53,356 nt of DNA, from the sequence record DRR723986_5841. One strand, given 5' to 3'. The notes under the pieces are model-generated. The model was not told the DNA's origin, ran no database searches, and worked only from the letters and a program-made list of their open reading frames with translations. This document shows, piece by piece, positions 5,319-15,258 of this stretch. The first letter of the stretch is position 1. Each line of letters starts with the position of its first letter. The position numbers were made by a program, and so were the translations under genes.

Positions 5319-6620
5319 CTATCGACTATAGAGCATCAAATTCAAAGTGTTTCTTGAATCACTCACCACGCCCGAAGTGGCTTCATTTCTCAAGGCAGTG
5401 GCCACATTGCCGGGTGCAATGCCTTTTGAAAGCAGTTTGGCGGCAGCGCCCGCCACATGGGGTGAGGCCATGGATGTGCCGCTCAATACTTGTTGAGCGT
5501 TGTCGTTGTTGATGCCGGCCGAAGTAATTTCGCTGCCCGGTGCGAACAAGTCGACACAACTGCCTATGTTGGAGAAAGAGGAACGTCTGTCGTTGCGGTC
5601 GGTGGATGCCACAGTCAAGGCCAAAGGTTCACGAGCTGGCGAGAATTCGCATGCATCACGCGAATCGTTGCCCGCAGCCACTACAGTGACAATACCTGCG
5701 TTGTGGGCTGCACGAATTGCTTGATCCACTGCGCTGGAAGCTCCACCGCCCAGACTGAGGTTCATTACCGCTGGCTTTACATGGTTTTGAATTACCCAAT
5801 CAATGCCTGCCACCGTTGATGACGAAGTACCTGTGCCCGCGCAATTAACCACACGTACACCGTGGAGAATCACATTTTTTGCCACGCCAAACTGCGTGCC
5901 ACCAATAGTGCCCGCAACGTGGGTGCCATGCCCGTTGCAATCGCTGGGTGTGGATGATGGGTCAAACGGATCCGAAGGATTACCAGAGGAAGGGGGTGGG
6001 GAGCTGGGAGAACCGAACAAGCCCCCAAACAACCCGCCACCACCAAGAAATCCACCGCCCAGAAAACCGCCACCTAACAAGCCGCCCGACGAAGAGCCGA
6101 TTGTGGCGTCAAAACCGTTGCCCACGCGCCCCCGGAATTCAACGTGGCTTGCTCGCAAGCCTGAGTCTACGACGTAGGCATGTACTTGGGCACCTGTGGA
6201 TGAGTAGGTGTATCGCATGTCTCGCGCATTTTCACGAGTGTCCAAACGGTCCAGGCCCCAGGTGGCATTGTTTTGCGTAATTTCGTTGTTCAGTTTGAAT
6301 GTTTGGTCTTGTTCAACATAGGCCACCAAGCCACTTCGGTTCAAGCCGCGAGCAATGTGGTCGGGCAGGTTGACTGCAAAACCCTTGAATACGTTCTTAT
6401 AGCGAAAGTTGATTTGTTGTGCGGGTAAACCCAGTTGGGCTTGTGCTTGATCCAGCAGGTTTTTAACAGGAGTGCCAATAGGCAAATCCAGAATTTGAGT
6501 CAGTGTTGCGGTGTCCTTAAGTACAACAATGTATTGGTTTTGGATGGGTTCGGCTTGGGACAGACTTGCTGTGGCGAACAAGCTTAAGGTTGCAGTGATC
6601 CGAATAAGACGAGAAGGCAT
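5319..6620 (-). CDS. Secreted S8 subtilisin-family serine protease (aqualysin/proteinase K type) with I9 propeptide
   Basis: Signal peptide; catalytic motifs VVDSG, HGTHVAG, GTSMASPHVAG; oxyanion AAGN; TWGLDRLD. Confidence 0.93.
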   Translation of the reverse strand: MPSRLIRITATLSLFATASLSQAEPIQNQYIVVLKDTATLTQILDLPIGTPVKNLLDQAQAQLGLPAQQINFRYKNVFKGFAVNLPDHIARGLNRSGLVAYVEQDQTFKLNNEITQNNATWGLDRLDTRENARDMRYTYSSTGAQVHAYVVDSGLRASHVEFRGRVGNGFDATIGSSSGGLLGGGFLGGGFLGGGGLFGGLFGSPSSPPPSSGNPSDPFDPSSTPSDCNGHGTHVAGTIGGTQFGVAKNVILHGVRVVNCAGTGTSSSTVAGIDWVIQNHVKPAVMNLSLGGGASSAVDQAIRAAHNAGIVTVVAAGNDSRDACEFSPAREPLALTVASTDRNDRRSSFSNIGSCVDLFAPGSEITSAGINNDNAQQVLSGTSMASPHVAGAAAKLLSKGIAPGNVATALRNEATSGVVSDSRNTLNLMLYSR

Positions 6621-7263: not shown

Positions 7264-7764
7264 TTACTTCACAGTGCCGAAATGTTTTTCGGTGTCGCGA
7301 ATGAATCCATCGAACAAAGCCAGTTTGGCGGCTGGGCTAATCAGCTTTAAGGGCAAGCCCAGCCCGAAACGCCCGGCCATGGCGAACTTCCATACAAAGC
7401 GGCAGCCTTCATCTGTGGGTGTGACTTCATACAACTCTGCAAACTGTTTGAATGCGGGTGCATTGGCCTGTTCCACATAAAAGGCATGGCGACGTTCTGC
7501 TTCGTCCCAAATGAAAAATCGTTCTTTCAACTTGATGGTGTTGAAGTTTGCTGCCACCTCGCGGGTAGTCCCCACTCGGAAAGGCCGTTCGCTGGTGTAG
7601 CGGCCGTTCAAGGCCTTGCACCATGCCAGTGGCTTGTCAGCCACCAACCCTGCCCATACTTCGTCGGCGGTGGCGCTCAGATGCATTGAATACTCGAAGC
7701 GAAGCGGGGCGGTGTCGAAAAACGATTCGTCAGTGACCTTGTCGAGGTCGAACCAAATGGCCAT
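7264..7764 (-). CDS. SRPBCC/START (polyketide cyclase-like) ligand-binding protein
   Basis: ATADEVW, VGTTREV, ERFFIWDE, YEVTPTDEGCRFVW patterns; GGAGA RBS. Confidence 0.8.
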   Translation of the reverse strand: MAIWFDLDKVTDESFFDTAPLRFEYSMHLSATADEVWAGLVADKPLAWCKALNGRYTSERPFRVGTTREVAANFNTIKLKERFFIWDEAERRHAFYVEQANAPAFKQFAELYEVTPTDEGCRFVWKFAMAGRFGLGLPLKLISPAAKLALFDGFIRDTEKHFGTVK

Positions 7765-7798
7765 TCAAAGTCTCCTTGTCTGTTGAGGGCATCTTTTT

Positions 7799-7875
7799 TT
7801 CATATTGTATTCATCTTTCCGTGGCGCCTTGTTCATGTAACAGCACAGTTTAGGTTAAGGCTCGGCGTTCAAACT
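7799..7875 (+). promoter_or_regulatory. Phased TTCAT-repeat promoter 1 (putative OmpR-family regulator sites)
   Basis: TTCAT at 7799, 7810, 7832; TTAAG at 7855; -10-like CAAACT at 7870. Confidence 0.7.
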
Positions 7876-7931
7876 GATTTTCATGCAGATATGTTCTGCA
7901 CTTGATCGAGAAACCCCAAAGGAGAAATATC

Positions 7932-8297
7932 ATGAAAAAGATTATTGCAGTCTCACTTGCTTTTGGCTTCAGTGGCGCAGTATTGGCCAGTGATTTGACC
8001 TACGGCGATGGTACTTACCACGTTGTTAAAGAATCGAAACCGTCCAGCTTGACCCGCGCTGAAGTGCTGTCCAACACTGAAAGTACCAATGTGGCCAATG
8101 CGCTGGATGGTTCTGTAACACCCAGCTATGCCCCAAATACTATGCTTACTCGCTCGGATGTGATCCGTAAAATGGAAGGTTTCCAGTATGCGGACTTTGG
8201 TGATGCAACTAACCCGACTCCTTGGGTGAAGGTGCGGGACGACAACAGCAACTTTGCGCAGGACGAAAGCAGCAAACCTGCGACAAAAACCAACTGA
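7932..8297 (+). CDS. Small secreted protein with two LTRAEV-type (DUF4148-like) repeats, paralog 1
   Basis: AAGGAG RBS, Sec signal peptide MKKIIAVSLAFGFSGAVLA, repeats LTRAEVL / LTRSDVI; clearly homologous to 8513..8824. Confidence 0.8.
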   Translation: MKKIIAVSLAFGFSGAVLASDLTYGDGTYHVVKESKPSSLTRAEVLSNTESTNVANALDGSVTPSYAPNTMLTRSDVIRKMEGFQYADFGDATNPTPWVKVRDDNSNFAQDESSKPATKTN

Positions 8298-8354
8298 TCT
8301 GTCGGTTTTCGCTTTCTTCATCTCACCCCCTGGGCTGTAAAAAGTCCAATTTCT

Positions 8355-8378
8355 GGCCCGAGCAATCGGGCCTTTTTT
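8355..8378 (+). terminator. Rho-independent terminator
   Basis: GGCCCG-AGCAAT-CGGGCC followed by TTTTTT. Confidence 0.75.
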
Positions 8379-8379
8379 G

Positions 8380-8456
8380 TTCATCAAACATTCATATTCC
8401 AAACCGCACTTGTTCATTGAAGCCTTTGGCTTAGGTTAAGGCGATGCGCTCACACT
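8380..8456 (+). promoter_or_regulatory. Phased TTCAT-repeat promoter 2
   Basis: TTCAT at 8380, 8391, 8413; TTAAG at 8436; -10-like CACACT at 8451. Offsets are identical to promoter 1. Confidence 0.7.
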
Positions 8457-8512
8457 GAGTTCACGCAGACTGATTGCAATAACCGATTACCAACCCGTTT
8501 AGGAGAAATACG

Positions 8513-8824
8513 ATGAAGAAAACGATTGCACTGTCACTGGTCTTTGGACTGAGTGGAACTGCAGTGGCGGCCAGCGACCTGTTTATGGGTGATGGCACCA
8601 ACCATGTTCGTATGGACAGCAAGCCATCTAACTTAACTCGAGCGGAGGTCCTTTCCAAAACAGACAGCAGCAATATCGCGAATTCGCTGGACGGTACGGT
8701 ATTGCCCAGCTACAGGCCAAGTTCGACGTTAACCCGCGCAGAGGTAATACGAAGAATGGAAGGTTACAGGTATGTTGAGTTTGGCGATGGAACCAGCATG
8801 AACCCTTGGGAGAGAATCAAGTAA
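8513..8824 (+). CDS. Small secreted protein with two LTRAEV-type (DUF4148-like) repeats, paralog 2
   Basis: AGGAG RBS, signal peptide MKKTIALSLVFGLSGTAVAA, repeats LTRAEVL / LTRAEVI; shares GDGT, SKPS, LDG, MEG, FGD, PW with paralog 1. Confidence 0.8.
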   Translation: MKKTIALSLVFGLSGTAVAASDLFMGDGTNHVRMDSKPSNLTRAEVLSKTDSSNIANSLDGTVLPSYRPSSTLTRAEVIRRMEGYRYVEFGDGTSMNPWERIK

Positions 8825-8870
8825 TCATGATTTTTCCATTCACTTTGGGGCTTTACAAAGCTCCTTGGTA

Positions 8871-8895
8871 GGGCCTGAATTTCAGGCCTTTTTTT
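8871..8895 (+). terminator. Rho-independent terminator
   Basis: GGCCTGAA-T-TTCAGGCC hairpin followed by a T-run. Confidence 0.7.
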
Positions 8896-8940
8896 CTTCA
8901 TAATGATTTATATTACATTCTAATGTCTGGTCAAAATCCG

Positions 8941-9016
8941 TTCATTTTGCGTTCATTTGTGTTGATGAACTACTTCATTGGAAGTTCAGTGACCGTTCAT
9001 CTTGACCGTTGACAAT
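8941..9016 (+). promoter_or_regulatory. Phased TTCAT-repeat promoter 3 (porin)
   Basis: TTCAT at 8941, 8952, 8974, TTCAG at 8985, TTCAT at 8996 (multiples of 11 bp; another in phase at 8897); -10-like GACAAT at 9011. Confidence 0.75.
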
Positions 9017-9047
9017 GGGGCTCCACATAAAAACCAAGGAGTACCCC

Positions 9048-10154
9048 ATGAAAACCAGTTCCTGTTCCGTGTTGGCGTTGTTGATGCTTGGCGCACTTTC
9101 AACCAATGCGCAGGCAGGCCAGGTAAGAACCGATGGCCAGGACATTATTCTTTCCACCAAAGGTGGATTGAAACTTCAAACGGAAGACAAAAGCGCAGGC
9201 TTTCAAATCGGCGGACGTTTGCAGTGGGATTACACGCAAGATGAGTCCGATACAGCAGCGAACGGCAACGAAACACTGGAAGATTTTGATGCGCGTCGCG
9301 CACGAATTTTCTTGCGTGGTCACTTCAATGATTTCGAAATGAAGGGCGAGTTTAATCTTGCTGAGTCTGGCACCAGCGGTGGCAGTGTCACCGATTTGTA
9401 CCTTAAATACAAAGGTTTCGGCGAAATGGCGAACGTGACGGTGGGCAAGCAGCGCGTTCCATTTGGTTTGGAGGTACTGACCAGTGCGAACGACATTTCC
9501 GCCCTCGAACGTTCTGCCATAACCGAGCTTTATACGCTGGATCGCTCTGCAGGTTTCAAGCTAAGCGGTCGGGGTATGGAAGATCGGTTTACCTACGGCA
9601 TTGGTTTGTTTGAAGCCAATGGTAACGGTACGAACGATTTTCAAGAACAGGCTTTTGCTGGACGTGTAACTTTCGCCCCGATCATAACCAAGAGTAGTCT
9701 TCTGCATTTTGGTGCAGGTTTTCAAACAATTGGTGCAACTGATCCTTTGCAAGAATCCGATACAGCGAACTTTGAAGTGGCAGGAGCCTTTGGTCCAGTT
9801 CATGCGCAAGCCGAATACTTTACTTCTGATGTTGGACCACAAAAATTTGATGGTTATTACGTTCAGGTCGGGTATTTATTGAATGGTGGGCATCGTCCAT
9901 ACACCGACGGCATATTCAAGCGTGTGAAGCCTGTTCAAGGAGGTACGTGGGAACTGGTGACGCGTTTTGAGGAAGGTGACGGTGACTTTGGCGATGTTGG
10001 GCTGGATGAAATCGATGGCCAGCAGACCACGTTCGGCGTGAATTACTACATGAACGATGCGGTTCGAATCGGTTTGAGTTACATGGATGGTGAAAGTAAT
10101 ACTAACAGCGACAGCGGCAATGAGCTGCGTATGCGCTTGCAGTTCACTTACTAA
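9048..10154 (+). CDS. OprO/OprP-family (anion/phosphate-selective type) porin
   Basis: AAGGAG RBS, signal peptide ending AQA, GGRLQWDY, RRARI, GKQRVPFGLE, ALERS, HAQAEY, WELVTRF, GVNYY, C-terminal RLQFTY. Confidence 0.85.
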   Translation: MKTSSCSVLALLMLGALSTNAQAGQVRTDGQDIILSTKGGLKLQTEDKSAGFQIGGRLQWDYTQDESDTAANGNETLEDFDARRARIFLRGHFNDFEMKGEFNLAESGTSGGSVTDLYLKYKGFGEMANVTVGKQRVPFGLEVLTSANDISALERSAITELYTLDRSAGFKLSGRGMEDRFTYGIGLFEANGNGTNDFQEQAFAGRVTFAPIITKSSLLHFGAGFQTIGATDPLQESDTANFEVAGAFGPVHAQAEYFTSDVGPQKFDGYYVQVGYLLNGGHRPYTDGIFKRVKPVQGGTWELVTRFEEGDGDFGDVGLDEIDGQQTTFGVNYYMNDAVRIGLSYMDGESNTNSDSGNELRMRLQFTY

Positions 10155-10168
10155 GTCATTTCGATAAG

Positions 10169-10185
10169 ATGAACGCCAGATTAAC
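10169..10185 (-). promoter_or_regulatory. Inverted copy of the GTTCAT tandem box upstream of the sensor kinase gene
   Basis: Minus strand reads GTTAATCTGGCGTTCAT, 16/17 identical to GTTCATCTGGCGTTCAT at 12598-12614. Confidence 0.65.
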
Positions 10186-10260
10186 AAGCCAAAAAATCTG
10201 GTGTTTATCACCGATAATCCCTAGCATCTGGATGTTGATATGATGCCAAAGGGAATGGTG

Positions 10261-11874
10261 ATGTTTAAGACCCGTATTCTGCTGGCCTTTGTGGCTTTGG
10301 CGCTGGTGGCGGTTGCTCAAGGGGTGATCGGCTACTTCGCCATGGTTACGGCCAGTCAGAATGTTCAAAAAGGCCGAGTCGCCAACGAGCTCTTAGTGGG
10401 TTACATGGACCTGCTTTCCAACAAACAGTTGCTAAGAACCCAACTGACCAACGAGATGACTGGGCTGGAGTCTGATCCCCAGCAAAGTCAGGTTTATTAC
10501 TTCAACATGATCCGCACCCTCGATACGCTGGATCGACTTGCAGAAACCTCGAAAGGTTTGACTCGTGGCGATCCAGAGCTCTTGCCTGAGCATGAAGAGC
10601 GAAGCCAAAGTCTGGTGATATTGCGAAAAGGGGTGAACCAGCTAGGCTCTGTCATGACAGCTTCAGAATGGAAATTTGAAGCGGTGACCCCCCAACAGAA
10701 GCGCCAAAAACTCGATCAGATTTTTGATGTGTCCGATGGGCAGGATTTGAGGGTGGCACTGACCCAGAGCATTGCGCGAGAACGCTTGATTACTGCACGA
10801 GATCGCGCTGCGGCAGACGTGTCGCTGAACTTTATGACCAATGTGGTTGTGATTGCCACGGTTGGCCTGGCTCTCTTCATGGTGATGCTTGCCTTTTATT
10901 TTGTGAGGTCTTTGAGTAAACCAGTTGAGCGTTTGATTAAGGGGGCTGAAGCTCTGCAGGCGGGGAACCTGAGCTATCGTATTCCCGCCTTCGGACGTGA
11001 TGAGTTCTCTCAGGTGGCGCGCAGCATGAATGACATGGCTCGGGAAATTGCACGCCTGCGCGCCAACGACGAACAGGTGCGGGAGCAGCTTGAGGTGCAG
11101 GTGAGTGAGCGAACCAATGAACTACAGGAGGCCTTGCACCGCCTTGAAAAAATCGAGCTTCGCCGCAGGCAGATGTTTGCCGACATCAGTCATGAGTTGA
11201 AAACGCCCACGACAGCCATTCGAGGTGAGGCCGAGATCAGTTTGCGCCACGGTGGCAACAATCCCATCGAGTGCAAGGAAACACTTGAGCGCATTGTTCA
11301 ATACACACAGCAACTGAACTACATTGTGGACGACATGCTGACCTTGGCGCGTAGCGATATTGATGCACTTGTTCTGGATCGCAGGGCAGTGGATGTTTCA
11401 ACGTTGTGCTACGAGTCGATCGCCTATTTCCGACCGCAGATCAGTCAGAAGGGATGTGCAGTCGAAGCGCAAATTCAAAGTGACAGCCTGGTGTTGGGCG
11501 ATGCGCAGCGCTTAAAGCAGGTTCTGAATATTATTTTGGACAATGCGATTCAATACAGCGGCCCGGGGGCGGTGATACGGATCAGTACTGCATCGGTGGA
11601 AGATTCTGAAAACATGCGTCGCTGCGAAGTGACGATTGAAGACAATGGGCCGGGTATTCCTGAAAAGGAGTTGGGAAGGGTTTTTGAGCGTCACTATCGG
11701 GGCACCATGGCCAAGTTGCTAAGGCCTGACGGCAGTGGTTTGGGTCTGCCACTTGCAGCAGCGATTGTGCGAGCACACCACGGCACCATTGACATAAGCA
11801 GTGAAGAAAACAAGGGATGCCGAGTCACGATCAATTTACCGGCATTTGATTCAGTGATTGAGGATGCAGTATGA
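10261..11874 (+). CDS. Sensor histidine kinase (2 TM, periplasmic helical sensor, HAMP, HisKA, HATPase)
   Basis: Two TM segments, HAMP (RDEFSQVARSMNDM), H-box ISHELKTPT, N-box ILDNAIQY, DNGPGI, GSGLGL. Start may be 10240, 10255 or 10261. Confidence 0.92.
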   Translation: MFKTRILLAFVALALVAVAQGVIGYFAMVTASQNVQKGRVANELLVGYMDLLSNKQLLRTQLTNEMTGLESDPQQSQVYYFNMIRTLDTLDRLAETSKGLTRGDPELLPEHEERSQSLVILRKGVNQLGSVMTASEWKFEAVTPQQKRQKLDQIFDVSDGQDLRVALTQSIARERLITARDRAAADVSLNFMTNVVVIATVGLALFMVMLAFYFVRSLSKPVERLIKGAEALQAGNLSYRIPAFGRDEFSQVARSMNDMAREIARLRANDEQVREQLEVQVSERTNELQEALHRLEKIELRRRQMFADISHELKTPTTAIRGEAEISLRHGGNNPIECKETLERIVQYTQQLNYIVDDMLTLARSDIDALVLDRRAVDVSTLCYESIAYFRPQISQKGCAVEAQIQSDSLVLGDAQRLKQVLNIILDNAIQYSGPGAVIRISTASVEDSENMRRCEVTIEDNGPGIPEKELGRVFERHYRGTMAKLLRPDGSGLGLPLAAAIVRAHHGTIDISSEENKGCRVTINLPAFDSVIEDAV

Positions 11875-12596
11875 AAGTGTTGATTGTTGAGGACGATGCG
11901 CGTGTATCAAGTTTTCTGGATCGTGGCTTGAAAGCAGAGGGATATCGCCCCCAAGTGGCACACAATGCCAGCACGGGTATTTCCATGGCCAAGGCCTTGC
12001 AAAAAGAAGTGCGTGAAAACTTTGAAAGTGCGGTGGTGATTCTTGATGTGATGCTGCCTGATGGATCGGGTCTGGATGTGTGCCAAACCTTGCGCGCAGA
12101 AGGATTCGCTTTGCCAGTTTTGATGCTGACTGCATTGAATTCAGTTGAAGATCGGGTGGCAGGTTTGCGCATGGGCGCTGACGATTACCTGGGTAAGCCA
12201 TTTGCATTCGATGAAATTTTGGCTCGAATTGAAGCCCTGGGTCGTAGGATAGGTAACTCTGTTCCCAAGCAAATCAGGAAGAATTTAGAAGTAGCTGACC
12301 TGAATCTTGATCTGGAAAAAATGCGCTTGTCACGTGCTGGGCGAGAAATTCAATTGACTGCGAAAGAGTTGGCACTGGTGGAACTATTGATGAGTGCGCC
12401 AGGTAGACTTTTCAGTAGGGAGCGTATTCTTTCGAATGTATGGAGCGTAAACGAAGACCCGCTAACCAATGTAGTGGATGTTTACATTCGTCGCCTGCGC
12501 GCCAAGATCGATCTTGATGGTTTGCCACCTCTGATCCACACCCAGCGTGGTTTGGGTTACCGGCTGGAGTCTCTGCAGGAGCCAGATTGCCAGTAA
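11871..12596 (+). CDS. OmpR-family response regulator
   Basis: LIVEDD, ILDVMLP, GADDYLGKPF, winged helix NVVDVYIRRLRAKI...TQRGLGY; ATGA overlap with the kinase stop. Confidence 0.94.
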   Translation: MKVLIVEDDARVSSFLDRGLKAEGYRPQVAHNASTGISMAKALQKEVRENFESAVVILDVMLPDGSGLDVCQTLRAEGFALPVLMLTALNSVEDRVAGLRMGADDYLGKPFAFDEILARIEALGRRIGNSVPKQIRKNLEVADLNLDLEKMRLSRAGREIQLTAKELALVELLMSAPGRLFSRERILSNVWSVNEDPLTNVVDVYIRRLRAKIDLDGLPPLIHTQRGLGYRLESLQEPDCQ

Positions 12597-12598
12597 TG

Positions 12599-12675
12599 TT
12601 CATCTGGCGTTCATTTGGGATTCCAGTTTGATTCATCGGGCAAGGAAGTTCTGGTTCATTTTGATCTTTCAGAAT
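12599..12675 (+). promoter_or_regulatory. Phased TTCAT-repeat promoter 4 (carbonic anhydrase operon)
   Basis: TTCAT at 12599, 12610, TTCCA 12621, TTCAT 12632 and 12655; -10-like CAGAAT at 12670. Confidence 0.72.
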
Positions 12676-12729
12676 GATGGTGTGAAAAGCAATGGTTGTT
12701 TTTCGAACCTCAATCTGAAGGAGCATAAG

Positions 12730-13293
12730 ATGAAAAATTCCAGTTTAGTTCGCACCACTTTGGTATCCGCCGGCTTGGTATTCAGCGGTGCCGCTTTCGC
12801 TAATACAGCTGTCGTGAGCAGCAATATCACTGAAGCTGAAGTATTGAAAGCCCAGAAAATGTGGGGCAATGCAGTGGTTCAAGTTTCCAAAGACTTTGAG
12901 GCAGGTGGCTTGGACAAGGCCAAGAAAACTGCCCAGGCAGCACTAGATACCGCCTACGCCTATGACATGGGCCCCGTGTTGTTCAAGCCCACCTTGGCGG
13001 CAATCCCGCAGAATATTCGCAGCACAGAAGAGGGCGCGTTGGCCTACTTCGTAGGTGACAATAAAAAATTCCCAAATGACACCGGCTTTGCCTTGAAAGG
13101 CTGGAGAAATGTAGAGTCCAAAAACTCTGTCATTCACCTGAATGGCAACACAGCCTTGACCATGGGCAACGTCAGCTTTACCGACAAGAATGGCAAGGTG
13201 ACCACAGTCGACAAAACCTGGGGCTATGTGAAAGACAGCGCAGGCAATGTGAAGATTGTGCTGCACCACTCCTCATTGCCATACACCAACTAA
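12730..13293 (+). CDS. Exported iota-class carbonic anhydrase (COG4337-type, NTF2-like fold)
   Basis: AAGGAG RBS; signal peptide ending AFA; motifs VLFKPT, GALAYFVG, GFALKGW, VDKTWGY and the C-terminal HHSSLPY signature of iota-CAs. Confidence 0.8.
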   Translation: MKNSSLVRTTLVSAGLVFSGAAFANTAVVSSNITEAEVLKAQKMWGNAVVQVSKDFEAGGLDKAKKTAQAALDTAYAYDMGPVLFKPTLAAIPQNIRSTEEGALAYFVGDNKKFPNDTGFALKGWRNVESKNSVIHLNGNTALTMGNVSFTDKNGKVTTVDKTWGYVKDSAGNVKIVLHHSSLPYTN

Positions 13294-13353
13294 ATATCCA
13301 GGTGGCCGATGCACAAGTCGGCCATTTATCCTGTTCTCATGGAAGCATTTGTG

Positions 13354-14271
13354 ATGAACCAACAACAATCAAAATGGATAAAAGCCGCAGTGCTGAGCAC
13401 TGCAGTATTTTGTGCCCCGGTTTGGGCAAGCACGGGCAAGCTGGTGTTGACCGGCGGTGTAAGTACCGTAGAGGGTGCTGGCGGTGGCGGTATCACGCCG
13501 TGGGCTTTTATTGGTACACAGGCCACAGAAAATGAACTGGGTTTTGCAACGAACCTGACCCAGGTTGAAACCCAGGATTATTCGCTGACCACTTATGGCG
13601 CCACTGTAGGCTGGAATGAGCGGGTCGAGTTTTCGCTGGGCGAGCAGGTGCTCGATACAGGTATCACCGGAACAGCCCTTACCGGCGCTGGTCTGGATTT
13701 GAAACAGCAAATCGTCGGCGTGAAAGTGCGCGTATTCGGTGATGGTGTATTGGACGCCGACACATGGTACCCGCAGGTGGCGGTGGGTCTGCAGCACAAA
13801 TCGCTGGATGCAGCTGCTTTGGAGCCAACGTTGACCTCACTTGGCGCTGATGACAGCGGAGCCGATTTTTACGTCACTGCGACCAAGCTGTTTTTGAAAC
13901 AAGGCATATTGGTCAACGGCACTTTGCGTGCTACGAAGGCCAATCAGAACGGCTTGTTGGGTTTTGGGTCAAGTACGGATGACAGTTACGAACTGATGCC
14001 CGAAATCTCTGTGGCGAAGCTGTTGAGTCACAACCTTGCGATTGGTGCGGAATATCGAATGATGCCAAACAATCTGGAAGCTGCTGGTCGCAATGCGGGC
14101 CTGAACAGTGGTTTGCGTGCAGACGACTGGATGGACCTATTCGTAGCCTGGGCTCCAACGAAGAACCTGTCGTTGACCGCGGCCTATGTCGACCTTGGTC
14201 GAATTGTACCTGCGACTACAGAGGGTCGCAGCCAGACCGGCTTTTACCTCTCTGCCCAGCTGGCATTTTGA
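13354..14271 (+). CDS. DUF3034-family predicted outer-membrane beta-barrel protein
   Basis: Signal peptide; GKLVLTGGVSTVEGAGGGGITPWA, TKANQNGLLGFG, GAEYR, AYVDLG; terminal Phe. Confidence 0.82.
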   Translation: MNQQQSKWIKAAVLSTAVFCAPVWASTGKLVLTGGVSTVEGAGGGGITPWAFIGTQATENELGFATNLTQVETQDYSLTTYGATVGWNERVEFSLGEQVLDTGITGTALTGAGLDLKQQIVGVKVRVFGDGVLDADTWYPQVAVGLQHKSLDAAALEPTLTSLGADDSGADFYVTATKLFLKQGILVNGTLRATKANQNGLLGFGSSTDDSYELMPEISVAKLLSHNLAIGAEYRMMPNNLEAAGRNAGLNSGLRADDWMDLFVAWAPTKNLSLTAAYVDLGRIVPATTEGRSQTGFYLSAQLAF

Positions 14272-14285
14272 AGGAGTACGTAATA

Positions 14286-14720
14286 ATGAAATCAATTCGA
14301 TCTTTTGTTGCTGCAATCGCGATAATCATGAGCATTCCACTTTCCGCTCAGGCTGGTTCCGAGAAGTCTTTGTATGAACAACTGGGCGGTAAAGAAAGTA
14401 TACGCACTGTCATGGACGACTTCGTAGTTCGTCTGAAGGCTGACCCGCGCATTGGTGATCAGTTTGCGGCTACCAATGCAGACCGACTTGCGTCTCAATT
14501 AACAGATCAAGTTTGTGAGGCAGCAGGTGGGCCTTGCAAGTATGTTGGTTTGGACATGAAAGCAGCTCATGCAGGGATGACGATTACCAAAGCTCATTTC
14601 AATGCACTGGTTGAAGTGCTCCAAGTCAGCATGAATGCGCACAGTGTACCTTTTGATGTTCAACTTGAGGTGTTGAGCATGCTGGCGCCCATGCACAGGG
14701 ATGTCATCACTGTCAGGTGA
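14286..14720 (+). CDS. Exported group I (2/2) truncated hemoglobin
   Basis: Signal peptide ending AQA; SLYEQLGG, ADPRI, GGPCKY, proximal His in MKAAHAGM, HFNALVE. Confidence 0.88.
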   Translation: MKSIRSFVAAIAIIMSIPLSAQAGSEKSLYEQLGGKESIRTVMDDFVVRLKADPRIGDQFAATNADRLASQLTDQVCEAAGGPCKYVGLDMKAAHAGMTITKAHFNALVEVLQVSMNAHSVPFDVQLEVLSMLAPMHRDVITVR

Positions 14721-15258
14721 ACATGAACAAGGCCCCGAGTTTACTGTACTCGGGGTCTTTGCTGGCACCTTGCTCTTGCTGAATCAATTTGACTTGTGCC
14801 ATGACCTTTTCCCAGTTGTTTTCAGTGTCTGGGTTGGAGAGACTGCTGCGTCGAAGGTCGAAGGCTTCGGCGAATACCTCCATACCCGTCCTGATATCGA
14901 TGCCTTCATAGAAACAGCTTTGGATACCTTGCAGGGTGTCGCGGTCTAACACCCGACCGCAAGATGTATCCAGACTGCCCCCAAACACCTCATCAATCCA
15001 GTCAACCGATGCGTCAAAAAACAGATTGATTTGTCGGCCGTTGGCCACGCGGTGTGGATGGCCCGCTGGAACAAACACACCTGTAGATCGGATCCATTGT
15101 CCGTCACAAAAGCATTCCACATCGTTGTTGTCCATGTCGATGGCAATTTGATGTGTCCAGTGGGCGTGATCGCTGGTTGCGCCTGGTACGCCTATAAAAA
15201 CGGCCAAGCCCATGGTGCAGGCGCACTTCTCGTTCAGTACCAAGATTTTATCGGTCAT
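14713..15258 (-). pseudogene. AraC-type N-terminal (cupin-like) domain lacking the HTH; probably a truncated regulator
   Basis: HAHWTHQI and VPAGHPH cupin-like motifs; only 181 aa, ending where the HTH would begin and overlapping the globin stop. Confidence 0.5.

Follow-up and report, generated by a model that had tools for sequence, protein, structure and literature searches.

A probable local two-component regulon with phased promoter boxes, built around an exported iota-class carbonic anhydrase homologue, on an accessory island of Limnobacter

We analysed a gene cluster in sequence record DRR723986_5841, a stretch of 53,356 nucleotides that we call the window. Eight genes, all on the + strand, lie between positions 7,799 and 14,755. 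They encode two small exported proteins (sm1 and sm2), a porin, a sensor histidine kinase, a response regulator, a homologue of the iota-class carbonic anhydrases (hereafter iCA), a DUF3034 protein and a truncated globin. An earlier note on this DNA had read these genes as a single envelope regulon, and the strand and families that it gave them agree with our Pfam and NCBIfam searches. The host is a Limnobacter, the genus under which public sources list the closest proteins. A 3.2-Mb genome (G001) matches the cluster with 99% identity over 7,601 bases, and the best named locus (L031), also Limnobacter, is 99% identical. The features are as follows.

7765..14743, no strand: accessory island of about 7 kb; the whole cluster is one presence/absence block (from the flanks in genome G023 and a contig of RNA-library run X3)
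7799..7836, + strand: promoter 1 box array, TTCAT-N6-TTCAT-N17-TTCAT, upstream of sm1
7932..8297, + strand: sm1, small exported protein with two LTRxxV repeats, DUF4148-like (18 bits, under the cut-off)
8380..8417, + strand: promoter 2 box array, upstream of sm2
8513..8824, + strand: sm2, paralogue of sm1 (DUF4148 25.5 bits, under the cut-off)
8940..9000, + strand: promoter 3 box array, upstream of the porin gene
9048..10154, + strand: OprO/P-family porin with signal peptide (PF07396, 149.4 bits vs gathering score 20.9)
10169..10185, - strand: reverse-oriented box pair GTTAATCTGGCGTTCAT between the porin and kinase genes, candidate autoregulatory site
10240..11874, + strand: sensor histidine kinase, with a first transmembrane segment, a helical periplasmic domain of ~155 residues, a second transmembrane segment, HAMP, HisKA and HATPase_c
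11871..12596, + strand: OmpR/PhoB-family response regulator, its start overlapping the kinase stop (Pfam, NCBIfam)
12598..12659, + strand: promoter 4 box array, GTTCAT-N5-GTTCAT-N17-TTCAT-N17-GTTCAT, upstream of the iCA gene
12730..13293, + strand: iCA, exported homologue of iota-class carbonic anhydrases (COG4337, metal-independent type)
13303..13324, + strand: stem-loop TGGCCGA...TCGGCCA followed by TTTAT, between the iCA and DUF3034 genes (read by eye)
13354..14271, + strand: DUF3034, predicted to form an outer-membrane beta-barrel; its glycine-rich N-terminal segment is invariant (PF11231, 312.7 bits vs gathering score 25)
14286..14720, + strand: exported group-1 truncated globin (Bac_globin PF01152, 54.5 bits)

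Read by eye, the translations of all six non-regulatory products have a typical hydrophobic N-terminal signal peptide that ends in A-x-A; the earlier note, too, had given each of them a signal peptide. The remaining two genes encode an OmpR/PhoB-type two-component system: the regulator combines a receiver with a winged-helix Trans_reg_C domain, and the kinase combines HisKA with HATPase_c (Pfam scores in bits: PF00072 76.5, PF00486 87.2, PF00512 51.6, PF02518 88.3, PF00672 52.8). That the porin selects anions is assumed here from its family membership.

The sequence TTCAT-N6-TTCAT occurs four times in the window, at 7799, 8380, 8941 and 12599, always on the + strand and once each upstream of the genes for sm1, sm2, the porin and iCA. 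This compares with an expected count of 0.22, and the highest count among 100 shuffles was one. Across the whole of G001, the three-box pattern TTCAT-N6-TTCAT-N14-19-TTCAT has four forward and no reverse matches, all four within the cluster, and reversed-pattern controls of this motif gave no match there (0 and 0). The claim of four promoters with one shared repeat layout is thus borne out. The porin and iCA promoters follow the pattern GTTCAT-N5-GTTCAT-N17-TTCAT-N16/17-GTTCAT in an 11-bp register; promoter 3, conserved in L021, L023 and L024, has GTTCAT at 8940 and 8951, CTTCAT at 8973, GTTCAG at 8984 and GTTCAT at 8995. Repeat families D1 and D7 indicate that promoter 2 was duplicated jointly with its gene. 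Five sister loci (L021, L023, L024, L025 and L026) also have the reverse-oriented pair ahead of their kinase gene, and its retention there suggests autoregulation.

Promoters of the PhoB and PmrA type carry direct repeats of hexamers with an 11-bp period, which are bound by dimers of OmpR-family regulators. The boxes in the window resemble these promoters in being hexamer direct repeats with a 5-bp spacer that keep to one face of the helix and immediately precede the core promoter, and the encoded regulator probably binds them in the same way. They differ in the hexamer itself, (G)TTCAT, in the two to six phased boxes per promoter and in the reversed pair upstream of the kinase. Further GTTCAT-N6-TTCAT matches in G001 lie on contigs C28 and C69; we judged the one on C28, which sits inside an open reading frame (ORF) of 377 residues, 1.8 kb from a beta-class carbonic anhydrase gene, to be due to chance.

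The same kinase, regulator and boxes accompany iCA well beyond Limnobacter. A scan with an iCA alignment, one genome per species, gave 80 loci, of which 40 carry orthologues of both the regulator (at least 45% identity) and the kinase within 2.5 kb of iCA. When only loci that extend 3 kb or more to either side of iCA are counted, 31/52 have both genes. Outside Limnobacter the regulators are 45-67% and the kinases 27-42% identical to those of the window. By their record labels, the loci that carry all three genes include many Burkholderiales, the gammaproteobacteria Rheinheimera, Alishewanella, Arsukibacterium and Cellvibrio (Alteromonadales-like), the alphaproteobacteria Paracoccus, Phenylobacterium, Hyphomonas and Agrobacterium, and a metagenome-assembled genome of the Bdellovibrionales. 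One further contig is labelled Acidobacteria and is possibly mis-binned, because the first 30 residues of its kinase are identical to those of a kinase on a Caulobacterales contig. The genes flanking the module vary from locus to locus (142 neighbours in 39 loci), and the trio of kinase, regulator and iCA is therefore the unit. This trio is a widespread conserved core, and the cluster in the window is a mosaic built on it.

The boxes follow the trio closely. Exact matches to TTCAT-N6-TTCAT number 35 in 1.23 Mb (both strands of the 80 iCA loci). Twenty-seven of these are on the iCA strand, within the 27.7 kb that immediately precede iCA, and three more are the remaining Limnobacter promoters. 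The other strand carries the last five: four of them precede the kinase and iCA genes or fall between them, and the fifth precedes iCA on a contig where kinase and regulator were not found. No exact box therefore occurs away from iCA or the module. An exact box is present in 22/40 loci with the kinase-regulator system vs 1/40 without it, and 17 of the 18 system loci that lack one show 11-bp-phased boxes with at most two mismatches; only L049 has no phased boxes even at that tolerance. A 17-mer of promoter 4, GTTCATCTGGCGTTCAT, recurs unchanged upstream of iCA in L054, L077, L086, L090 and L094, and is common to Limnobacter, Roseateles, Hydrogenophaga and Rhizobacter loci.

In a random sample of 301 genomes, drawn evenly across the host's order, the sensor domain of the kinase is present in 11 and iCA in 13; six have both, and in all six the two are adjacent. 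One sensor-positive genome, G134, shows a different arrangement: behind the orthologous kinase and regulator come the same four-box GTTCAT layout and, after it, the gene for an exported COG4875-type protein (L194, 8310-8988). Its fold is of the CaMKII_AD/SnoaL type (3h51, E 8.4e-34), its C-terminus reads HHHSS and it shares 29% identity with the window iCA; its signal may be of the twin-arginine type. That the same system and operator precede two distant subfamilies of iota-class enzyme argues for functional coupling rather than inherited synteny. G237, also sensor-positive, has a box before its kinase gene at the end of a contig, and in G070, G214 and G304 no anhydrase gene was found near the kinase. 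We did not count G610 as a member; it has a weak sensor match (class level, E 2.8e-16) and no iCA within ~6 kb.

Loci without this kinase-regulator system often have another sensor next to iCA. In 4/4 such loci tested (L032, L033, L038 and L050, labelled Paraperlucidibaca, Solimonas, Polycyclovorans and Marinobacter), a CHASE3 hybrid histidine kinase lies beside iCA together with a single-domain receiver, which is fused in L033; L032 and L050 also have a LuxR-type regulator with a weak GAF match. The CHASE3 kinase is a second, unrelated type of sensor linked to iota-class carbonic anhydrases. A relationship between the two sensor types was considered and dropped: hhalign of the window-type sensor against the four CHASE3 sensors gave a probability of 5%, and no homology was shown.

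The iCA protein matches the solved metal-independent enzymes closely (7c5v_A, E 2.8e-60 over residues 21-186; 7c5x_A, E 8.6e-83). It shares COG4337 homology and the catalytic residues with all2909 of Anabaena and Bn86287 of Bigelowiella, and has a signal peptide, as do most bacterial members of COG4337 (PMC8132391). Enzymes of this type operate without a metal, and in all2909 an alanine substitution at Thr106, Tyr124, His197 or Ser199 abolishes activity (PMC8132391). The corresponding residues are identical in iCA, namely the T of FKPT, the Y of LAYFVG and the H and S of HHSS, and all four are invariant in 34 module-linked iCA sequences. It differs from all2909 and Bn86287 in scoring below the NCBIfam equivalog cut-off, and its anhydrase activity is a prediction from the conserved active site. 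No alpha-class carbonic anhydrase was found in the four Limnobacter genomes searched, all four of which have beta-class enzymes, so iCA is the sole candidate for a periplasmic anhydrase found in them. Public sources label close relatives of iCA as 'phosphoribosyl-AMP cyclohydrolase', which is at odds with the match to iota-class enzymes.

Within Limnobacter, the kinase is present in 11/25 genomes (and in 0/16 genomes from other families of the order). Kinase, regulator and iCA are kept in all 10 Limnobacter loci examined, DUF3034 and the globin in eight, and this porin in five. Conserved boxes stand before iCA, the sm genes, porin genes and DUF2490 genes. The more distant Limnobacter species have them ahead of another Porin_O_P gene (as in L027), of DUF2490 genes and of an sm homologue; in the group L027-L029, the genes with boxes in front are DUF2490 genes and a Porin_O_P gene of 494 residues. 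The porin, the small proteins and DUF2490 are box-bearing additions made in Limnobacter, and because boxes precede such genes, the recurrent targets of the regulon are outer-membrane channels and periplasmic proteins. L027-L029 (genomes G024, G016 and G014) also have an orphan regulator beside the globin gene; it is 75-79% identical to the window regulator, which is closer than their own cluster regulator (67-68%).

The DUF3034 and globin genes belong to a second module that is independent of the first. A metagenome scan for DUF3034 gave 80 loci, three of them Limnobacter-like; of the remaining 77, 65 have at least 500 bp downstream, and in all 65 a globin homologue follows DUF3034 directly on the same strand. 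The earlier note had called DUF3034 a frequent neighbour of truncated globins, which understates the pairing. Of the 79 loci outside Limnobacter from the iCA scan, none had DUF3034 within 6 kb of iCA (tblastn with the window protein), one (L052) had a globin and one (L042) a porin, a further Porin_O_P gene directly after iCA. The proposal of one regulon is therefore supported for the window, where the boxes mark four promoters and the same boxes precede iCA elsewhere, and does not extend to the full combination as a conserved unit. A single regulon spanning all of these genes is a Limnobacter assembly.

The DUF3034 metagenome loci do include two where the modules meet. In L114 and L115, which are not Limnobacter, an iCA gene (57-58% identical) lies directly upstream of DUF3034; the globin follows in L115, and L114 ends 13 bp past DUF3034. 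L052 has a partial globin match right after iCA and no DUF3034 match. A link between iCA and the DUF3034-globin pair is thus not confined to Limnobacter. No TTCAT boxes were found upstream of iCA in L052, L114 and L115, which share instead the inverted repeat TATGCC-N4-GGCATA at this position, suggesting a different regulator.

The DUF3034 protein is predicted to be an outer-membrane barrel. Its AF2 model has modest confidence (pLDDT 66.4), and the nearest Foldseek matches are FapF (7e-10), then OmpG and a KdgM-like porin. Thirty globin N-termini were inspected by eye, and all look like signal peptides. In an alignment of 69 globins, two cysteines are each conserved in 68, the proximal histidine F8 (MKxAH) in at least 90%, and the distal positions are apolar: B10 is Val in 50 (as in the window), Met in 15 and Ile in two, and E11 is Leu in 67/69. 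The helix numbering follows an alignment with HbN of Mycobacterium tuberculosis. HbN is the best solved relative (E 1.4e-19) and has the proximal histidine in common with this family. The family differs from it in being exported, in its two invariant cysteines, in its pairing with DUF3034 and at the distal pair, Tyr B10 and Gln E11 in HbN, which is absent from the window globin. Gas binding is predicted for the globin from its family membership. Periplasmic truncated haemoglobins have reportedly been mentioned for cable bacteria. Recurrent neighbours of the pair (L114-L190) are an unannotated protein of ~716 residues (22 loci), an anti-sigma RskA_C protein (15), an extracytoplasmic function sigma factor (12), a ferritin-like DUF4439 protein (nine) and cytochrome c (six).

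The features of the kinase that bear on its cue come from alignments of 34 sequences. These leave out L054 (internal stop in the kinase ORF), L079, L071 (short ORF), L097 and L105 (contig ends), and L047, L078, L087 and L090, which were dropped to limit near-duplicates. The H-box His318 and N-box Asn435 are invariant. The periplasmic domain contains no cysteine and no conserved histidine or methionine in any of the 34 sequences (zero to five histidines each), which argues against direct sensing of a metal. It does have an invariant Lys62 and conserved arginines in the motifs RGRVA and GRDLR, and is rich in charge, with 22 Asp+Glu and 19 Lys+Arg among its 156 residues. AF2 models residues 8-222 as a helical bundle (pLDDT 84.9). 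Its nearest folds by Foldseek, none significant (best E 0.05, none at or below 0.001) and used for the fold class alone, are the ligand-binding domains of Tsr, Tar, PcaY and MCP2201 and the kinases Adeh_2942, KinB and NarQ. The model thus points to the class of small-ligand four-helix-bundle receptors. A profile of the sensor found no meaningful match among PDB sequences, the best being glucose-6-phosphate isomerase (E 0.0021), followed by HAMP chimeras.

The invariant lysine and the arginine motifs of the sensor fit a small anion as ligand. Hints to inorganic carbon come from the absence of an alpha-class enzyme in the four Limnobacter genomes searched, from the link to anion porins, with Porin_O_P genes tied to iCA or boxes in three contexts, and from the neighbours of the module, which within two genes include members of the Sbt_1 bicarbonate-transporter family in 5/39 loci and a cyanase gene in one. 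The four-helix-bundle fold of the sensor and its lack of conserved metal ligands lead us to favour bicarbonate or CO2 as the cue, tentatively and with somewhat less than even confidence. A more specific version, in which the whole kinase family consists of dedicated periplasmic sensors of dissolved inorganic carbon that bind bicarbonate or are carbamylated at Lys62 and switch on an exported metal-free carbonic anhydrase (plus an anion porin in Limnobacter), seems to us possible and on balance unlikely.

The following mechanism would account for these observations. The four-helix-bundle domain of the kinase would sense a periplasmic cue and lead to phosphorylation of the OmpR-type regulator, which would bind the (G)TTCAT arrays at their 11-bp spacing and drive four transcription units: sm1; sm2; porin, kinase and regulator; and iCA, DUF3034 and globin. 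The ancestral unit would be the kinase, the regulator and the exported iota-class carbonic anhydrase. Limnobacter would have gained the OprO/P-type anion porin, the barrels (DUF3034, and DUF2490 in sister species), the DUF3034-linked globin and the small periplasmic proteins. The most likely cue would be the state of inorganic carbon in the periplasm (bicarbonate/CO2, possibly read together with pH), and the output would be more entry of anions across the outer membrane and interconversion of CO2 and bicarbonate in the periplasm. We are confident of the regulon architecture in this scheme, and a local regulon with autoregulation is well supported. For the complete reading, a self-contained autoregulated two-component regulon on an island with periplasmic inorganic carbon as its most likely cue, our confidence is moderate. 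Gene content, the distribution and conservation of the boxes, synteny and the polymorphism of the island are computed results; binding of the regulator to the boxes, co-transcription, anhydrase activity and, most of all, the cue are inferred.

Several results weigh against this reading. In the order sample, 5/11 sensor-positive genomes have no COG4337 iCA (one has the COG4875 type beside the kinase) and 7/13 iCA-positive genomes have no such sensor, so the link is not obligatory. The Foldseek matches that place the sensor fall short of significance. The best NCBIfam matches of kinase and regulator are heavy-metal sensor families, with scores below the cut-offs. Sbt_1 adjoins the module in just the five loci mentioned, and most neighbours are unrelated housekeeping genes. 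The iCA protein itself scores 240.8 bits against NF047901, under the 350-bit equivalog cut-off, and for this reason we file it as a homologue with a conserved active site rather than as a curated equivalog. Co-transcription of iCA, DUF3034 and globin is assumed from a gap of 60 bp that contains the stem-loop at 13303-13324, a possible partial terminator or processing site that the terminator scan of the window did not pick up. Coverage from RNA libraries (four runs, two studies) consists of contigs and is uninformative on transcription, its level, its strand and the ends of operons.

The same regulon could respond to something else. If the kinase read periplasmic pH, under acid or alkaline stress, the anhydrase would buffer the periplasm. 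The closest known case points this way: in Helicobacter pylori, the acid-sensing ArsRS system controls a periplasmic alpha-class carbonic anhydrase, hp1186, and has in common with the module an OmpR-family regulator, a kinase that faces the periplasm and an exported anhydrase as target (PMC2736386). Hirakawa et al. speculate on pH homeostasis as a role for bacterial COG4337 proteins (PMC8132391), and the charge-rich periplasmic domain would suit such a cue. However, ArsS sensing involves His94 (PMC2736386), whereas the window sensor is a four-helix bundle without a conserved histidine; the two sensors are compared here by features and not by homology. ArsRS also governs a global acid regulon with a zinc enzyme, whereas the system here is a compact module adjoining an iota-class enzyme in half of the loci scanned, and neither urease, amidase nor other acid-acclimation genes lie nearby. 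We regard pH as an unlikely cue; this alternative overlaps with inorganic carbon, because the two are chemically coupled.

Metal or envelope stress, or a shortage of zinc in which a metal-independent anhydrase replaces the zinc-dependent ones, is less probable still. It would draw on the fact that this type of iota-class enzyme works metal-free (PMC8132391), on the resemblance of sm1 and sm2 to DUF4148, and on the nearest curated families by sequence, which are the heavy-metal systems CusRS, CopRS and CzcRS. Yet the scores lie well under the cut-offs (TIGR01387, the best for the regulator, 209 vs 279.2 bits; TIGR01386, 173.9 vs 292.55 bits), the periplasmic domain lacks conserved metal ligands, and the island showed neither an efflux pump nor a metal-resistance gene, which sets it apart from those systems. 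COG0523/CobW-type genes within two genes of the module hint at zinc economy, but in only 2/39 loci (L079 and L106), from related genera. A further possibility is that the iCA-like protein doubles as a periplasmic co-sensor, binding CO2 or bicarbonate and modulating the kinase, in the way that accessory periplasmic proteins act on other kinases. The trio is tightly conserved over 40 loci, both iota-class subfamilies occur beside the same kinase family, the unrelated CHASE3 kinase adjoins iCA in all four further loci tested, and a precedent is DbfQ-DbfRS, which is reported to include a small periplasmic modulator whose gene adjoins those of the system. But the boxes upstream of iCA already account for the linkage as one of regulator and target, the sensor is missing from more than half of the iCA-positive genomes in the order sample, and contact between kinase and iCA is conjectural. 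We consider this very unlikely. Inorganic carbon remains the cue that we prefer.

Iota-class carbonic anhydrases have been recognised only recently. On what they do in bacteria that are not photosynthetic, the study describing them goes no further than a speculation (PMC8132391), and neither a search of its main text for gene clusters nor our searches for a two-component link gave an account of their regulation or gene neighbourhood. The earlier note had called the combination undescribed, and our searches turned up no description. Those on iota-class enzymes with two-component systems, with subscription journals outside the search, found no account of the module; those on bicarbonate-sensing kinases, with the same scope, described neither this module nor such a kinase; and those on DUF3034, which gave no paper about its function, and on COG4337 had nothing on this link. 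New here are the widely conserved module of kinase, regulator, operator and iota-class enzyme, expanded in Limnobacter on an accessory island, and the invariant pair of DUF3034 and an exported globin.

The module points to an undescribed regulation of inorganic carbon or pH handling in the cell envelope, and it turns the role of iota-class carbonic anhydrases into a direct question, namely which cue switches the unit on. If the cue is bicarbonate or CO2, the kinase would be a long-sought bacterial membrane sensor of inorganic carbon, and the first two-component system with such a ligand, present in many freshwater and marine Proteobacteria, and its boxes would make a portable CO2-responsive promoter. 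If it is pH or a metal, a widespread uncharacterised two-component family would still gain a function and a defined operator. The pairing with an exported, disulfide-bearing truncated globin would be the first functional handle on DUF3034.

The island is polymorphic among close relatives. In G023, 52 bp separate the left flank (97% identical) from the right one (94% identical), and the cluster is missing entirely from this site. The block is 6,979 bp long, and one contig of run X3 joins 7764 to 14744 and skips exactly these 6,979 bases (a single contig, depth 3.7). In G022 and G009, the genes that flank the island are on contigs other than the one that bears the cluster. No mobility gene was seen within the block. 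Close to the two ends of the island are the arms of a 16-nt inverted repeat (7823-7838 and 14721-14736; 94% complementary). The left arm takes in the third promoter 1 box, and the repeat may have been left by the insertion or may be an additional regulator site.

Terminator-like hairpins follow sm1 (8355-8372), sm2 (8870-8890) and the globin gene (14733-14755). Neither sm protein reaches the gathering score of DUF4148 (PF13663, 27 bits), and Atlas matches of both to this family (0.87-0.88) serve as leads only. A 181-residue ORF without a Pfam or NCBIfam match (14713-15258, - strand) converges on the globin gene, and the last 8 bp of that gene are shared between the two. Upstream of the island, an ORF on the - strand (5319-6620) encodes a secreted S8-type protease-like protein with a long insert rich in Gly, Ser and Pro.

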